Below are positions 7,229 to 36,963 of a stretch of 64,000 bases of DNA, one piece after another. The translations under genes were made by a program, and so were the position numbers. Under the pieces are notes generated by a model. The model searched no databases, had not been told where the DNA came from, and saw only the letters and a program-made list of their open reading frames with translations. Source of the stretch: an uncultured delta proteobacterium. GTDB taxonomy: Bacteria > Desulfobacterota > Binatia > UBA9968. Position 1 is the first letter of the stretch; each line of letters begins with the position of its first letter. The stretch lies in NCBI GenBank assembly GCA_963745035.1, contig CAVUVW010000002.1, positions 1 through 64,000 on the forward strand. The letters run 5' to 3'.

Positions 7229-7425
7229 TCGAACAATCGAAAACCTGTGCTGAGCTATGTCGAAGCATCGAAAATCCGAAAATGGCGAGGCGATTCGGCG
7301 AGCGGGGCTGGCAAGGGCGGACAAGATGATTCGGTGAACACTAAAGGCGGCGGAGACTTAAAACTGTCGTTTCATGACGGGGTACGACGGAGTTGGAACA
7401 TGACCTCAATCGTTTGTGTTTTGCG

Positions 7426-33364: not shown

Positions 33365-34348
33365 CTAAGGCAAATAGCCGCACTGGCGCCAGAAGCGTTC
33401 GGCGGCGGGATGGAGAGGCACTTCAAGGTGGCCCTGCGGCGTGTCGCGCACCATTTGCGCAAGCGGCAGCGGCGCTTCCCCGGCCCACGGAATTCGCGTC
33501 TTGCTTTCCTCCAGCGCGCGGCAAAAATCCGCGACCATAGCATCCGGCGTATCGCGGTGGGTGTAGATCGGCCAACCGCTGAAATCGAGGGTCGGCACAT
33601 CGGCAGCGAGCTTCGGAAAATATTTCTGTTGAATCAAGCCCCGTCGTAGACCCACCGTTTCCAATCGCGCGAGCATGGTTTCGTCCAACGAGAGAAAATT
33701 CATGCCCAACTCGAGCGCCATGTTGCCCCAGGCGCTGGCGCCCTCGTCAAAGATTGCGTCGATCTCGTCGCGCTGCATGGCGCCGATGCGGTTCGGTCCG
33801 TAGGCCATGCCAGCGTCGTAGCGCACTTGACCGCCCCAGGAGACGATGTCGTCCAGCGAAAAACCGGCGGCTTCGAGCACGTGATTGACGATTACGTGCA
33901 GCGAATGGTCCGGCTGCGCGCGCAGTGAAATCCGCAGCGGAAATTTGCGCGCGCGGATATCGCTGAACGATTGGAGACCCGTTTCCTGTTTGACGGCGAA
34001 CAGCATCGAGTCCAGGGACGGCAGGACAGCGATCACGCGCACAGGTATCGGCTCCGTGAAAGGCGCGCTGCCCAGCGCGGCAAGCTTGAGCATCATCGAC
34101 GGATTGATGATCGCAAAGTGCACGCGACCCTCGGCAACTTCTTGGACGGTGGCGGGGCTATCGCTCGCGAACAAGGTCACCGGCCAATCGGCGGCGCCCT
34201 GCTCGCGCAAACTGATGCGCGCCTGGAGATAAGGAAAATCTTTCCGATTGACGAGGGCTGAGGCGACTTCGAGCATGAGCCGCGACCGCGTCGTGTGCGG
34301 ATGCGTTCGCAAGCGGGTAGGTTTGAGGGTCAATTCGTCTTGGCTCAT
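33365..34348 (-). CDS. TAXI-like solute receptor fold protein
   Basis: C-terminal PLHPAAERFW motif; SFSDIRARKFPLRIS. Confidence 0.7.
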   Translation of the reverse strand: MSQDELTLKPTRLRTHPHTTRSRLMLEVASALVNRKDFPYLQARISLREQGAADWPVTLFASDSPATVQEVAEGRVHFAIINPSMMLKLAALGSAPFTEPIPVRVIAVLPSLDSMLFAVKQETGLQSFSDIRARKFPLRISLRAQPDHSLHVIVNHVLEAAGFSLDDIVSWGGQVRYDAGMAYGPNRIGAMQRDEIDAIFDEGASAWGNMALELGMNFLSLDETMLARLETVGLRRGLIQQKYFPKLAADVPTLDFSGWPIYTHRDTPDAMVADFCRALEESKTRIPWAGEAPLPLAQMVRDTPQGHLEVPLHPAAERFWRQCGYLP

Positions 34349-34485
34349 AACTACACCGTCGAGCTTCCGGAATACCTCCCGCAAAGCATGTCCTGAGACT
34401 TGTATGATGGATGTCGGCTCTGAACCGGGAGTGCTCTGCTACAATGCCCGAAACGCCAAAGGCATTGTGCAAGGAGGCACTCAGC

Positions 34486-35622
34486 ATGGGACACAAAGCG
34501 TTTATACCACAAGAGTACGATGTGTTTGCGGGCTTGGACGTAGATAAAAGAAGCATCTCGGTGACCTTTAGCAACCATCAGCAAGGATTTGTCCGATCGT
34601 TGCACATGCCGTACAGCGTGGAGCACTTGCTCAAGCACGTACGCAAGCATTATCCCGATCAGAAGGTTGCGTTTGTCTATGAAGCTGGACCGACGGGGTA
34701 TGGATTGTATGATGGGCTTTCGGCCCAGGGGTATAACTGCTTGGTGGCGGCACCTTCGATGATCCCTCGAGCTCCCGGGCAAAGAGTCAAAACCAATCGC
34801 CTCGACAGCCGAGGGTTGTCGGAGAGCTTGCGCGGTGGACAGTTGAAGAGCATTCACGTGCCTTCGCCCATTTATCGAGAGCTTCGCCATCTCACTCAGC
34901 TGCGCGACACCTTGGTCAGTGAAGTGGCGGGGATGAAGCAGCGGATTCAATCGCTGTTGCTGTTTGAGGGGATCGCTTTCCCAGCGGCTCCCGCTGGGAG
35001 CCGCTGGTCTTTGAAAGTGAAGAGCCAACTGAGGAAACTTCAGTGCTCTAAGAGCATGCGCTTTAAACTCGATCAGTTGCTCGACAACGTGGAGTTTTCT
35101 GAGAAGCAGGTCGTGAAAGTGACCAAAGAGATTCGCAAGCTCTGTCAGAACGATCCTGAACTGGCGCAGTGCATGAAGTATATGATGAGCGTTTGTGGCA
35201 TCGGCTGGATTGTGGCCAGTCAGCTCCTGGCTCGTATCGGTGATTGGCGGGAACTTAAAAACGTGCGTCAGCTGGCAGGGTTTTTGGGGCTGGTTCCGAG
35301 TGAGGACTCTACGGGAGAGAAAACCGATCGAGGCTCGATCACCCGCACGGGACATGGCCGCCTGAGGAGTAAACTCATCCAAGCGGCCTGGTCGGCGATT
35401 CGCCAAGATGGTGAACTTCGGGAGTTTTACAGTTCGGTATGCCGCAGACACCCGCGGCATATGGGTCCGCGAGTCGCCATCGTCGCCGTGGCGCGCAAGC
35501 TCAGCACCCGGATTGCTGCGGTGTTGATGGAACAACGGCCCTATGTGATGAGACAAAAAGTTCATTCAGCTCCTTTGACCCAAGAGGAGACATCGCCCCA
35601 GGGAACGGCTCGACGACTTTGA
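34486..35622 (+). CDS. IS110 family DEDD transposase
   Basis: AGLDVDK, YEAGPTG, KTNRLDS, GLVPSEDSTG, VAVARKL motifs; GGAGG RBS. Confidence 0.95.
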   Translation: MGHKAFIPQEYDVFAGLDVDKRSISVTFSNHQQGFVRSLHMPYSVEHLLKHVRKHYPDQKVAFVYEAGPTGYGLYDGLSAQGYNCLVAAPSMIPRAPGQRVKTNRLDSRGLSESLRGGQLKSIHVPSPIYRELRHLTQLRDTLVSEVAGMKQRIQSLLLFEGIAFPAAPAGSRWSLKVKSQLRKLQCSKSMRFKLDQLLDNVEFSEKQVVKVTKEIRKLCQNDPELAQCMKYMMSVCGIGWIVASQLLARIGDWRELKNVRQLAGFLGLVPSEDSTGEKTDRGSITRTGHGRLRSKLIQAAWSAIRQDGELREFYSSVCRRHPRHMGPRVAIVAVARKLSTRIAAVLMEQRPYVMRQKVHSAPLTQEETSPQGTARRL

Positions 35623-35624
35623 GA

Positions 35625-35800
35625 ACCGGGAGAAAGAAACTCCTGACGGTTCGATCCTTGAGACAGAGATCCCGGGGCTTTGTGCCTTAGAGAGGGGCGC
35701 ATTTTAAGTCAGTGTGACGGCCGGGTGCCGTGCCACGCATAGCAGCAAGTCTCTCTTGGCCGGGAAAGAAGAAGGGATAAACTAAGAGCATTCGCGGTGT
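35625..35800 (+). ncRNA. Putative bridge/seek RNA of the IS110 element (boundaries approximate)
   Basis: Non-coding end with segments matching target (TCCTGA, CTTTG) and circle junction (CATAGCAG, CAAGTCT). Confidence 0.55.
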
Positions 35801-35858
35801 AGCGACTTGACATCCACATAGCAGCAAAGTCGAAGGGACGCGAAGCCCGCAAAGATTC

Positions 35859-35917
35859 TGTCATTTCGACCGCACGGGAGAAATCCTTCTTAGATCCCTC
35901 GCATTGCTCGGGATGAC
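35859..35917. repeat. TGTCAT...GATGAC palindromic repeat (related copy 39514-39585)
   Basis: Inverted-repeat ends with internal GAGAAATC/GATCCCTC arms. Confidence 0.6.
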
Positions 35918-35973
35918 GGTCTTTGACCGTCACTTGGCGCCTTTGCGCCTTGGCGAGAGATAATCCGAACGGA

Positions 35974-36963
35974 CTACTTCGTCTTCAGCTCCCGATAGAC
36001 CTCGCGCGCCAATCTGAAATCCGCTACCTGTGAGATCGGCACGGACTGTTTCGCCTTCGTCACCCGCAAGCTTTCCTCAATGCCTTCCTGCAGCGCCTGG
36101 TCCGATGCCACGCCGCTATCGGTCCAGGTCTTAACCATCATATCGAAAGCCTTCTCGGCGACGTCGCGTTCAAGCTTCCACTTCGCCATGATCAGCGAGA
36201 TGGAATCCTGCCGCTGGGCGCGCGCATGGGCCATGCCTTTAAAGGCCACCGCGATCATGTTTTTGACCTGATCGGGCCGTTGCTGCAGCCAGCGATCGGA
36301 AACACCATACCCGCCATTGATGCTCTCCAAGGTTTCGCCCATGAAGGCTAGGCGGCGCAACCCCATGCGCTCCGCGAGAATATCCACCGGCAAGGTCAAC
36401 GTGGTCGCGTCAACGACGCCGGCTCGAAGGGCTTGGAGCCGGTCGGGTGTATTGCCGATGACTCGCAGAGTCATTTCCTTATCGGCGTCGATGCCAGCGT
36501 CCTTGAGCAAACGTCGCGACAGAAATGACTCTCCGGACGTAAGCGTGGCTACGCCCAGGACTTTGCCCTTTAGCTCCTTGATGGAGCGAATCTCTCCGCG
36601 CGCCATGAGCGAGAATAGCGGTCGGTCGTTATAGACCATCGCCAGCTTCACGGGCAGGCCGCGCACCGCGGCATTGATCGTCGTGCCGGCGAAGACCACA
36701 TATTGAATATCGCCGGAGATCAGCGCCGTTACCGCGATCGTCGGCGGGATATTGATCAGCTCAGCATCGAAGCCGGCCTGCTCGAAGAAGCGATTCTCTT
36801 TGGCGACGATCAACGGAAACGGAATCAACCCGCCGACGGAATAACCGATTCGCACCTTTTCCAGCTCCTTGCTGGCGGCAACAACCGGGGCGCTCGTGAG
36901 CGCAATAAAGATCGTCAGCGCGACAGCCGGAGCAAAAGCAACTCTAAGACTTCGTCGCATCAA
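35974..36963 (-). CDS. NMT1/SsuA-type solute-binding protein
   Basis: Signal peptide; KELKGKVLGVAT, RLQALRAGVVDA. Confidence 0.88.
   Translation of the reverse strand: MMRRSLRVAFAPAVALTIFIALTSAPVVAASKELEKVRIGYSVGGLIPFPLIVAKENRFFEQAGFDAELINIPPTIAVTALISGDIQYVVFAGTTINAAVRGLPVKLAMVYNDRPLFSLMARGEIRSIKELKGKVLGVATLTSGESFLSRRLLKDAGIDADKEMTLRVIGNTPDRLQALRAGVVDATTLTLPVDILAERMGLRRLAFMGETLESINGGYGVSDRWLQQRPDQVKNMIAVAFKGMAHARAQRQDSISLIMAKWKLERDVAEKAFDMMVKTWTDSGVASDQALQEGIEESLRVTKAKQSVPISQVADFRLAREVYRELKTK

Follow-up and report, generated by a model that had tools for sequence, protein, structure and literature searches.

The locus at 34396-35824 of the window (the whole 64-kb stretch of DNA analysed) raises the question of how an insertion sequence chooses the site that it enters, and which of its own bases make that choice. 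All features discussed lie on the forward strand. The host genome carries five copies of the element, 1422-1427 bp long and ~100% identical, and in all five the dinucleotide AG flanks both junctions; paralogous repeats without an insertion carry TGAGC only once. Insertion is site-specific and leaves no target duplication, a short core being present in both donor and target. The copy in the window has a body of 1425 bp (34398-35822) between a left (34396-34397) and a right (35823-35824) copy of the AG core, which is the only sequence common to both junctions, and the ends originally predicted from it are correct. Subterminal inverted repeats begin 5 nt inside the left end (TATGATGGATGTC, 34403-34415) and 2 nt inside the right end (35809-35820). 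They match perfectly over 8 bp (TGGATGTC, 34408-34415, versus GACATCCA, 35809-35816) and, by eye, at 12 of 13 bases with one gap, which lies in the range of 7-17 bp that characterizes IS1111 elements. Joined at AG, the ends would bring the -35 box TTGACA (35807-35812), which falls in the right subterminal repeat, to 17 nt from the -10 box TATGAT (34403-34408), the first six bases of the left repeat, and would thus form the circle-junction promoter that had been predicted. This promoter is conserved, the right end TTGACATCCACATAGCAG being present in 76 of 83 elements. Contigs of four sequencing runs contained neither the circle-junction joint nor an empty-site joint skipping the element.

The gene of the element (34486-35622, stop codon TGA at 35620-35622) encodes a transposase of 378 aa and has, 8 nt 5' of its ATG, a directly readable ribosome-binding site AAGGAGG (34471-34477). 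The protein combines an N-terminal DEDD/RuvC-like domain with a C-terminal Transposase_20 domain, as IS110 transposases do, and matches the Pfam profiles PF01548 (E=1.7e-14) and PF02371 (E=1.5e-21) as well as the NCBIfam model 'IS110 family RNA-guided transposase', NF033542 (score 218 bits, cutoff 140; profile positions 1-343 of 343), in agreement with the family named in the original prediction. Its matches in the PDB include IS621 (E=2.7e-11) and ISCro4 (E=3e-14). Three residues of the D-E-D-D tetrad are present (D18, E66 and D107), and the third position is N104, the motif KTNRLD aligning with KTDAVD of ISCro4. Of 66 relatives, 61 share KTN, and KTD is confined to a match of 32% identity; the lineage is very abundant in soil metagenomes, 5584 of the 8000 candidates scored being proteins that reach E<=1e-20. 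The alignment suggests that Asn at this third position, conserved as it is in a lineage that evidently moves, is probably tolerated. The IS1111 motif GL-P----S(t)G is present as G268-L-V-P-S-E-D-S-T276-G277 (GLVPSEDSTG). The length of the protein, 378 aa here and mostly 385-386 aa in the best 120 relatives, lies outside the 330-350 aa given for IS1111 in PMC11187229. Downstream of the gene are 202 nt of non-coding DNA, compared with 88 nt upstream, and the guide region described below (35614-35746) lies at this 3' side. We conclude that the element is very probably an IS1111-type member of the IS110 family, an RNA-guided insertion sequence, and its layout matches that of published IS1111 elements with a seekRNA or bridge RNA.

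What the element enters is a repeat, as had been predicted. All five copies of the host genome are inserted in variants of a single repeated motif, four of them between (C/T)GTCCTG-AG and AG-C(A/G/T)A(A)GTCGAAGG; the left flank of the fifth is ACCGTTG-AG. The copy in the window has TGTCCTG (34389-34395) directly before the core as its left target half and, by comparison of the flanks of the copies, CAAAGTCGAAGG (35825-35836) as its right target half. The motif TGAGC-N2-5-GTCGAAG occurs 52 times in the 7.4-Mb genome, and 69 times in a looser form. The window has three related copies, at 7246, 15730 and 20380, and the exact target 21-mer has no second copy within three mismatches in these 64 kb. 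In uninterrupted repeats, around whose loop we read the stem by eye, the target corresponds to the loop of a short hairpin repeat; the loop, TGAG-C-NNN-GTCGAAG, is conserved and the stem varies. An RNA-guided insertion sequence that enters a short repeated hairpin is ordinary for its class. The AG core and the repeat as target had both been called unusual, but AG is CT on the opposite strand, and REP-type targets, REP being a repeat able to fold, are already published for ISPa11 (PMC11187229).

Relatives that occupy other targets made it possible to locate the guides. A protein scan of a genome collection gave only three close relatives, to which a class-level search added three loci, and a metagenome pattern scan led from 158 pattern matches to 103 with a scaffold anchor and 94 unique elements; about half of the metagenome pattern matches were chance occurrences without the scaffold and were dropped. 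We compared ~70 relatives, from uncultured soil bacteria in records naming Binatia and Sulfotelmatobacter, which were collected by a pattern inside the RNA itself (hairpin P4) and are thus biased to one scaffold. The covariation of guides with targets among homologues, which the original prediction had proposed as a check, is observed for both target guides.

The right-target guide is CGACTTTG (35614-35621), which is antisense to right-flank bases 1-8 (CAAAGTCG) and overlaps the last transposase codons and the stop codon. In 73 unique element/flank pairs we searched the 52 nt that precede hairpin P1 for the 7-mer most nearly antisense to bases 1-7 of the right flank; the best match was 7/7 in 31 pairs, 6/7 in 22, 5/7 in 15 and 4/7 in 5. 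The mean is 6.08, compared with 5.03 for shuffled flanks (maximum of 500 shuffles: 5.25), a permutation statistic that is inflated by the kinship of the relatives to one another, as are those given below. Shuffled flanks gave a 7/7 match in 1456 of 36500 cases (4%), and the perfect matches to true flanks lie at one fixed position. Divergent targets each match their own guide, as in the relatives L017 (CGTTGCG/CGCAACG), L047 (CGTTTCG/CGAAACG), L048 (ATGCCCG/CGGGCAT), L050 (CGGCTGG/CCAGCCG), L132 (CACCGCA/TGCGGTG) and L150 (CGAGTGC/GCACTCG). The left-target guide, TCC(T)TGAG (35655-35662), has the same sense as the left target and core, with a one-base bulge at 35658. Over 43 pairs it matches on average 3.35 of 5 bases, compared with 2.56 for shuffled pairs (maximum of 2000 shuffles: 2.98), and it follows the target into such sequences as GTGC (L060), GCCC (L104 and L115), CGGT (L017), CGAT (L020) and GCTAG (L061). 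A left guide without the bulge performs worse (2.16 of 5, compared with 1.89 shuffled) and suits only L061. Mutual information independently singles out the same guide columns; it also links 35656 with right-flank base 11 (complement 0.62), which we take as a signal of the target stem. Weak matches, 4-5 of 7 on the right in 20 of 73 flanks and 1-2 of 5 on the left in 10 of 43, reflect either tolerated mismatches or flanks altered after insertion. The antisense guide precedes the sense guide, which is the guide order of IS1111 elements in PMC11187229.

The fold in which these guides lie was obtained from the alignment only, folding of the single 205-nt 3' end giving no signal (z = -0.04), and Rfam contains no family matching 34000-36300 at E<=1. 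Hairpin P1 (35623-35652) separates the two target guides, and 5 of its 10 pairs are changed on both sides. Its 3' strand includes GGTTCG (35648-35653), which we had considered as a guide for the right-flank CGAA of L047 and L070; these bases show compensating changes within P1 (GAGCC/GGCTC in L048), and in L047 and L070 the true guide lies upstream. Hairpin P3 (GGGGC/GCCTT, 35674-35688) has two pairs changed on both sides and a freely varying loop. Hairpin P4 (35712-35736), which lies between the donor guides in the consensus fold, is invariant because it served as the search pattern for the relatives. A closing helix P2 is predicted between AGAGA (35665-35669) and 35752-35756. It is nearly invariant and hence without covariation support, its pairing register is ambiguous, and neither P2 nor the pairing of 35696-35698 with 35749-35751 has changes on both sides in the alignment; two RNAalifold runs gave differing registers. 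A terminator-like hairpin followed by TTTT (35681-35701) was rejected, the T run being missing from most relatives.

On the donor side, the element's ends are nearly invariant, so that covariation is uninformative for the donor guides. The putative left-donor guide CATAGCAG (35738-35745) has the same sense as the right end and core, and among 2000 dinucleotide shuffles made from the 3' non-coding region only 0.15% reach its 8-nt match. Of 74 relatives, 72 carry ATAGCAG or a version of it that wobble pairing allows; CATCGCAG and CATTGCAG, seen once each, do not fit. The next base, 35746, is identical to the first right-target base in 66 of 74 pairs, a value that none of 2000 permutations reaches, and thus behaves like a handshake base; 35747 and 35748 do not significantly follow right-flank bases 2 and 3 (122 and 249 of 2000 permutations, respectively, reach the observed values). 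The original prediction had read the donor by abutting guides, CATAGCAG and CAAGTCT (35746-35752). The former fits, and the latter is kept in relatives only as (A)GTCT. That the guides abut is a misreading, because the base after CATAGCAG tracks the right flank and not the left end. As right-donor guide we propose AAGTC (35706-35710), antisense to the core G and ACTT of the left end. In the donor loop it holds the place that the right-target guide holds in the target loop, each being followed by C-A and then a hairpin, and in 24 of 31 combinations 4-5 of its 5 bases can pair with the left end (wobble included).

This equivalence of position and this complementarity also weigh against the strongest alternative, which shares our target guides and differs in having the left end read by (A)AGTCT (35747-35752) instead of 35706-35710. 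In its favour, 67 of 74 relatives have GTCT, antisense to AG+AC, after the three variable bases, and according to Durrant et al. (PMC11208160) the bases that bind the donor are located, in many IS1111 RNAs, in a multi-loop and not in a simple internal loop. Yet the same bases are predicted to lie in the closing helix with GAGA/AGAGA at 35660-35669, and the pairing would amount to only 4-5 bp; we regard this alternative as possible but doubtful. An improbable one is that an earlier insertion, tandem or nested, left CATAGCAG and the next base (35738-35746) behind as a relic or secondary copy of the right end, still joined to a bit of target. The stretch does resemble a right junction (CCAC..ATAGCAG+C), and rearrangements at these sequences do occur, since L026 has a tandem duplication from just before P4 to the right end, the second copy of which begins directly after right end and core. 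However, the sequence is in the same place in all 74 relatives examined, its variants are mostly wobble-compatible (C to T and A to G), and its last base changes with the current target in 66 of 74 cases, unlike that of a relic.

Still less probable is the guide map first proposed, in which the target is read by TCCTGA (35641-35646, left) and CTTTG (35678-35682, right) and the donor by the abutting pair discussed above. All four motifs are where they had been reported, and CAAGTCT is antisense at 7 of 7 bases to AG+ACTTG in this element, a match found in 2.3% of shuffles; on these shuffle frequencies CATAGCAG and CAAGTCT exceed chance and TCCTGA and CTTTG do not. A sense match of at least 6 nt to the left target, as TCCTGA provides, arises in 14% of shuffles. 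Moreover, TCCTGA is unchanged in L017, L020, L094 and L061 despite very different left targets (ending GGTCG, GATTG and GCTAGG), forms part of the 3' strand of P1 with its compensating base changes, and contains the stop codon of the 386-aa relatives. The match of CTTTG to the right target extends over only 5 nt, which is at chance level (the best antisense match to this target in the non-coding region, 6 nt and elsewhere, is reached by 33% of shuffles); CTTTG fits just two of the five right flanks of the element's own copies, and it is the closing base and loop of P3, which vary in relatives without tracking the right flank. On the donor side of this map, the outer bases of CAAGTCT fail to pair in relatives: all 44 have G as base 5 of the left end, but 35746 varies (C in 37, G in 4 and T in 3), and base 4 is T in 43 of 44, yet 35747 is A in only 22. 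The target guides are 35614-35621 and 35655-35662; the warning attached to the original prediction, that its short target matches could be chance, was correct, and a 3' guide RNA region, the AG core, a predicted junction promoter and the repeated target are supported. Least probable of all is that the transposase protein alone selects the target and that the matches in the RNA region are by-products: the loop TGAG...GTCGAAG, conserved in most targets, could in principle be recognized by a protein, but guides and flanks co-vary in lineages whose transposases are 70-90% identical, including at targets without the usual motif (L047, L048, L132 and L149), and PMC11187229 and PMC11208160 report experimental RNA guidance for the IS110 family.

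By analogy with ISEc11 and IS621 we infer a life cycle for the element, its sequence of events included, in which the RNA would be made, bound and paired with the donor. The element would excise as a circle joined at the AG core, and the joint would create the promoter TTGACA-17-TATGAT, driving a transposase mRNA whose 3' part, from ~35575 or 35614 to 35757, would be the guide RNA. In the target module, CGACTTTG would pair with the top strand of the right target CAAAGTCG, and TCC(T)TGAG, 3' of P1, with the bottom strand of the left target and core. In the donor module, CATAGCAG would pair with the bottom strand of the right end and core, and the left end would probably be read by AAGTC, 5' of P4; 35746 would match the first target base in the fashion of a handshake guide. 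The transposase would then recombine circle and target at AG without duplication. It is possible, if short of probable, that this RNA is a bridge RNA of the IS621 type that reads the other strand of the DNA. The bottom-strand core is CT, as in IS621, and the sense guides 35655-35662 and 35738-35745 would continue past the core to bases belonging to the other partner, so that the AC of the left end at 35663-35664 and the first target base at 35746 would be the handshake guides and the bottom strand would therefore be exchanged first. As to the AC, position 35664 is variable in three lineages, and the left end shows no variation.

The closest known systems are ISPa11, ISEc11 and ISKpn4, the IS1111-group elements with seekRNAs, which we compared by description rather than by sequence. 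According to Siddiquee et al. 2024 (PMC11187229), they share with the element a long non-coding region downstream of the transposase gene, subterminal inverted repeats, a circle-junction promoter, the motif GL-P----(S/T)G, and a top-strand guide that lies 5' of the bottom-strand guide and meets it at the insertion point. The element differs from this description in its longer transposase (378-386 compared with 330-350 aa), in the Asn at its third catalytic position and in the placement of the right-target guide in the last transposase codons; its hosts, uncultured soil bacteria, also differ. SeekRNAs are listed in PMC13604230 as short (82-96 nt) or long (148-172 nt), compared with ~75-110 nt for the target module and ~145 nt for both modules here. 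IS621, of the IS110 group, belongs to the same transposase family and, as Durrant et al. and Hiraizumi et al. 2024 describe it (PMC11208160 and PMC11208158), has a bridge RNA with two guide-bearing loops and a hairpin between the two guides of each, a dinucleotide core (CT, the same as AG on the opposite strand) and handshake bases that match the other DNA partner, as 35746 appears to do. Unlike the element, in these descriptions it encodes its RNA at the 5' end, with reversed guide order, and has a subterminal repeat of only 2-3 bp and a transposase of 326-328 aa with KTD. ISPpu9 of Pseudomonas putida is reported as an IS110-family member inserted several times in repetitive extragenic palindromes, and resembles the element by description in having a small RNA gene downstream of the transposase gene (PMC12288879).

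Metatranscriptome contigs of relatives give a weak hint that the guide RNA is transcribed. In two studies such contigs start at 35575 and end at 35678-35686, although contig ends may be assembly breaks, and their depth is 31-35 compared with 3-4 for contigs on the gene, assembled contigs showing no RNA ends, strand or level. The relatives from which they come differ exactly at 35617-35621 and 35655-35656. Parts of the element without contig cover carry no weight. IS621 is said to target REP sequences, as Choi et al. reportedly described in 2003.

The class is already known and used as a genome-editing tool, so that the overall picture is unchanged and the value of the locus is practical. Its relatives form a natural retargeting series: one RNA scaffold is common to dozens of guide/target pairs, and these establish where the guides of an IS1111-type RNA lie without recourse to experiments. 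For annotation there are two cautions: short matches in the non-coding end, whether sense or antisense, do not rise above chance, and one real guide lies within coding sequence, where a search restricted to non-coding DNA misses it. The handshake-like behaviour of 35746, the Asn in third place of the catalytic tetrad and the presence of a guide in the last codons all offer hints about the mechanism. Since the right-target guide lies inside these codons, retargeting would rewrite the tail of the protein, and in this copy it may have produced the early stop that yields 378 aa instead of 386.

The element at 34398-35822 (+ strand) is an IS1111-type RNA-guided insertion sequence directed at the loop of a REP-like hairpin, a kind of element that is already known. 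Its 378-aa transposase (gene at 34486-35622, + strand; ribosome-binding site AAGGAGG at 34471-77) has both IS110-family domains (PF01548 and PF02371; Pfam) and scores 218 bits against the NCBIfam model NF033542 'IS110 family RNA-guided transposase' (cutoff 140), and the only solved structures related to it are the ISCro4 and IS621 transposases. Within residues 103-109 (34792-34812) the third catalytic DEDD residue is Asn, the sequence reading KTNRLD where ISCro4 has KTDAVD; KTN is found in 61 of 66 relatives and KTD in the 32%-identical match only.

The 7.4-Mb genome of the organism holds five copies of the element (1422-1427 bp, ~100% identical), two of them frameshifted. Alignment of the flanks of these five copies places the ends at 34398 and 35822 and leaves AG, present on both sides, as the sole junction sequence in common, as the original prediction had proposed. 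Four copies are flanked by (C/T)GTCCTG-AG on the left and AG-C(A/G/T)A(A)GTCGAAGG on the right, and the left flank of the fifth is ACCGTTG-AG. Since paralogous repeats elsewhere in the genome that lack the insertion contain a single TGAGC, the AG is a core common to donor and target, not a duplication. The promoter sequence predicted for the circle junction is likewise confirmed: joining the ends would bring TTGACA (35807-12) and TATGAT (34403-08) together across a 17-nt spacer. Both boxes sit within subterminal inverted repeats, in which TGGATGTC and GACATCCA match perfectly and a longer repeat, read by eye, matches at 12 of 13 positions with one gap. The 'Pjunc' paper reportedly has ISEc11 as its subject. 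A junction promoter has been shown for ISEc11 and ISEc21 (PMC11187229). Junction promoter formation and the targeting of repeats, the latter originally called unusual, have both been published for the IS110 family.

The proposal that the target is a repeat holds in a looser form than first described. The exact 21-mer of the target has no second copy within 3 mismatches in the window, where three related repeat copies lie at 7246, 15730 and 20380, but the motif TGAGC-N2-5-GTCGAAG occurs 52 times in the genome (69 times in a looser form), whereas we estimate a chance expectation of ~3.5 for its 12 fixed bases. Several different longer repeats carry the motif, and, by eye, the 3-5 bases to the left of TGAG are complementary to those to the right of GTCGAAG (GTCC...GGAC, ATGC...GCAT, GCCC...GGGC), so that the insertion point falls within the loop of a small hairpin, the loop being conserved and the stem variable. 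The right flank (35825-35960) runs on into a longer repeat that is found at three further places in the genome, with CCCGCAAAG on both sides of the insertion site. Short repeats, the TGAGC..GTCGAAG motif among them, also lie in the spacers of a tandem array at 1-27000, composed of ~23 diverged copies of an ABC-transporter substrate-binding protein gene (60-80% DNA identity, spacing ~1.0-1.1 kb; the copy at 13586-14689 matches PF04392, E=4.6e-48). The element itself lies between two similar minus-strand solute-binding-protein genes, 12 bp upstream of where the gene at 33365-34384 (NMT1-like binding protein) could first start, and it splits this gene from the one at 35974-36963; the insertion may interrupt an operon of the two.

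Relatives were gathered from three sources. Scanning one genome per species with the protein gave 3 close relatives (metagenome-assembled, labelled Candidatus Binatia or Candidatus Sulfotelmatobacter); further loci with 72-92% protein identity, some of them multi-copy, came from the organism's own order (matches at E<=1e-40 in 14 of 123 genomes) and class (at E<=1e-60 in 10 of 401); and a metagenome scan with the arms of the conserved 3'-end hairpin gave 121 stretches, about half of which were dropped as chance matches without the remaining scaffold. The final set comprises 94 unique elements, each with at least one flank. Two relatives from unpublished genomes (L012 from genome G055 and L014 from G093) are counted in the flank, guide, helix and catalytic-residue statistics, with no claim resting solely on them, and a third (L021 from G074) was used in the protein comparison only.

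The target guides were located by a mutual-information screen of 3'-region alignment columns against flank positions, which gave two signals: right-flank bases 5 to 1 find their complement in columns 35616-20, and left-flank bases recur unchanged in columns 35655-59. For the right guide, we scored, within the 52 nt before P1 (the hairpin between the target guides), the antisense 7-mer that best fits right-flank bases 1-7, in a set reduced from 94 to 79 to 73 unique pairs by excluding those in which the anchor GAGACAGAGA was missing or fewer than 10 flank bases were clean. The match was 7/7 in 31 pairs, 6/7 in 22, 5/7 in 15 and 4/7 in 5, a mean of 6.08 versus 5.03 with flanks shuffled among elements (maximum of 500 shuffles 5.25), under which a 7/7 match arose in 1456 of 36500 cases. 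Perfect matches fall at a single fixed position, immediately before (C)AG-AACC, and unrelated targets are each matched by their own guide (target/guide in individual relatives: L017 CGTTGCG/CGCAACG, L047 CGTTTCG/CGAAACG, L048 ATGCCCG/CGGGCAT, L050 CGGCTGG/CCAGCCG, L132 CACCGCA/TGCGGTG, L150 CGAGTGC/GCACTCG and L015 CGATAGA/TCTATCG). The right-target guide of the window element is CGACTTTG (35614-21), antisense to CAAAGTCG, the 8 bases that open the right flank. It overlaps the last transposase codons and provides the stop TGA (35620-22) that ends the protein at 378 aa, while in most relatives the frame continues to a TGA within CTCCTGA in P1 (385-386 aa).

The left-target guide, TCC(T)TGAG (35655-62), is sense. 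In a set of 43 unique pairs, left-flank positions -2 to -6 are matched, with one bulged base, by the bases that precede GAG, scoring a mean of 3.35/5 versus 2.56 shuffled (maximum of 2000 shuffles 2.98), with 5/5 in 7 pairs, 4/5 in 15, 3/5 in 11, 2/5 in 6 and 1/5 in 4. The match is clear for GTGC (L060), GCCC (L104 and L115), ACCC (L013 and L016), CGGT (L017) and CGAT (L020), and the guide GCTAG of L061 fits without the bulge. Guide and target thus covary across homologues on both sides (73 and 43 pairs), a positive outcome of the check that the original prediction had proposed, and its general idea of an IS110 element with a guide RNA is borne out. From 5' to 3' come the antisense guide, a hairpin and the sense guide, both guides meeting at the core, and this is the order described for IS1111 seekRNAs, reversed in the IS110 type (Siddiquee et al., PMC11187229).

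All four motifs of the original prediction are present where it had placed them, but neither of its target guides survives. In the screen, its guide positions showed nothing comparable, neither high identity nor high complementarity in register to the flank that each should read. In 2000 dinucleotide shuffles of the non-coding end, a 6-nt sense match to the left target such as TCCTGA (35641-46) was reached in 14%; this motif forms the 3' strand of P1 plus a bulge, P1 showing two-sided changes, holds the usual stop codon of the family, and stays constant in elements with the left targets GGCGGTCG, GGCGATTG or CAGCTAGG. For the right target, the best antisense match that the non-coding end offers is 6 nt long (33% of shuffles) and lies elsewhere than CTTTG (35678-82, 5 nt). 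CTTTG makes up the loop of hairpin P3 together with its closing base, and two P3 pairs change on both sides. Of the five right flanks in the element's own genome CTTTG fits only 2, and the loop reads TTTGT, CTTGT, ATTGT, CGAGT, CAGAC, GTAGT and others among relatives, independent of the flank.

A six-helix model of the RNA was tested on 72 distinct sequences and includes P1 (35623-32 with 35640-52), P2 (35665-69 with 35752-56), P3 (35675-78 with 35684-87, a fifth pair in one prediction extending it to 35674-88), a 3-bp helix (35696-98 with 35749-51) and P4, the hairpin between the donor guides (35712-20 with 35728-36). Standard pairs fill 96.3% of 2082 cells, and two-sided changes occur in 7 of 29 pairs (shuffle mean 1.4; 0/500 shuffles reach 7), confined to P1 (5 of 10 pairs) and P3 (2 pairs). 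P4 is invariant because it served as the search pattern for relatives. P2 and the 3-bp helix are invariant as well, and the pairing register of P2 differs between two RNAalifold runs, so that these closing helices are predictions only. The picture suggested by the model is of two guide-bearing loops, each with a 5' antisense guide, a hairpin and a 3' sense guide, which agrees with Durrant et al. (PMC11208160), who place IS1111 RNAs in the right end with donor-binding bases often in a multi-loop.

On the donor side, CATAGCAG (35738-45), originally proposed as the left-donor guide, equals the right end plus core (8 nt; 0.15% of shuffles). All 74 relatives examined have ATAGCAG or a variant of it at this site; the variants are wobble-compatible except for CATCGCAG and CATTGCAG, each seen in one relative. 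As the element ends are nearly invariant (right end identical in 76 of 83 elements; left end AGAC(T/C)TGTATGA(T/G)GG in 49 of 53), donor pairing is beyond the reach of covariation. The abutting right-donor guide of the original prediction, CAAGTCT (35746-52; 7 nt, 2.3% of shuffles), was a misreading: base 35746, directly after the core, follows the right target, not the left end. It equals the first right-flank base in 66 of 74 pairs (C/C 57/63, T/T 5/5, G/G 4/6; permutation mean 0.67, 0/2000 reaching the observed identity). In the CAAGTCT pairing it would face left-end base 5, which is G in 44/44, yet 35746 varies, and 35747, which would face base 4 (T in 43/44), is A in only 22. CAAGTCT therefore pairs 7/7 in the window and similar copies only; the GTCT conserved in 67 of 74 relatives is also part of the predicted closing helix. 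AAGTC (35706-10) is a candidate whose position makes it the more probable reader of the left end. On the 5' side of P4, it is separated from that hairpin by C-A, just as C-A-G separates the right-target guide from P1 in most relatives. Counting wobble, it is complementary to left-end bases 1-5 at 5/5 in 11 of 31 combinations, 4/5 in 13 and 3/5 in 7, with one compensating case (L008, ACTCG with CGAGT).

In IS621, the guide pairing 3' of the core on the exchanged strand extends over the core into handshake bases, which match the other DNA partner (PMC11208158). Both sense guides of the window element similarly extend past the core on the bottom strand, since after TCC(T)TGAG comes AC, with which the left end begins, and after CATAGCAG the first target base; the core on the bottom strand is CT, as in IS621. 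By analogy, the AG core and reversed guide order may reflect an IS621-like RNA acting on the opposite strand, the single supporting observation being the behavior of base 35746. A literature search on handshake bases and the bottom strand in IS1111 elements, together with passages of the review PMC13604230 but leaving aside supplements and figures that might bear on the matter, yielded no statement of such a reading.

All or part of the element occurs, as contigs, in 20 public runs. At least half of its sampled words are present in 14 of them, every one tagged 'DNA?' (a guessed type); these 14 belong to five studies, of which four carry labels as metagenomes of soil, rhizosphere or winery. The other 6, with smaller shares (0.09-0.31), are recorded as RNA. 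We compared three RNA runs and one DNA run with the region. In two RNA studies, contigs begin at 35575, two of them running to 35686 and one to 35678, at depths of 31-35 versus 3-4 for gene contigs of the same runs in the first study (two contigs) and 5.8 versus 2-3 in the second. They derive from relatives that differ from the window exactly at guide positions 35617-21 and 35655-56; a third run has an identical contig over 35569-35718. These contigs are compatible with a short RNA bearing the target module, published short seekRNAs being 82-96 nt (PMC13604230), but contigs are blind to RNA ends and levels and can be expected to break where sequences vary, which leaves only a weak hint of expression. 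Contigs of the DNA run stop at 34391 and 35825, as they should for a repeated element, and at 35825-35960 contigs of RNA and DNA runs pile up with many loose ends.

In the relative L026 (genome G049) one copy has a tandem duplication from just before P4 through the right end, the second duplicate beginning right behind the right end and core. The left flank of L006 has a 21-nt tandem duplication, and that of L008 has 12 nt repeated twice, both ending at the insertion point. In six copies (L016, L034, L154, L051, L052 and L114) an additional CAG lies between the right end plus core and the guide-matching sequence (...CATAGCAG-CAG-target), which looks like slippage or an alternative joining point.
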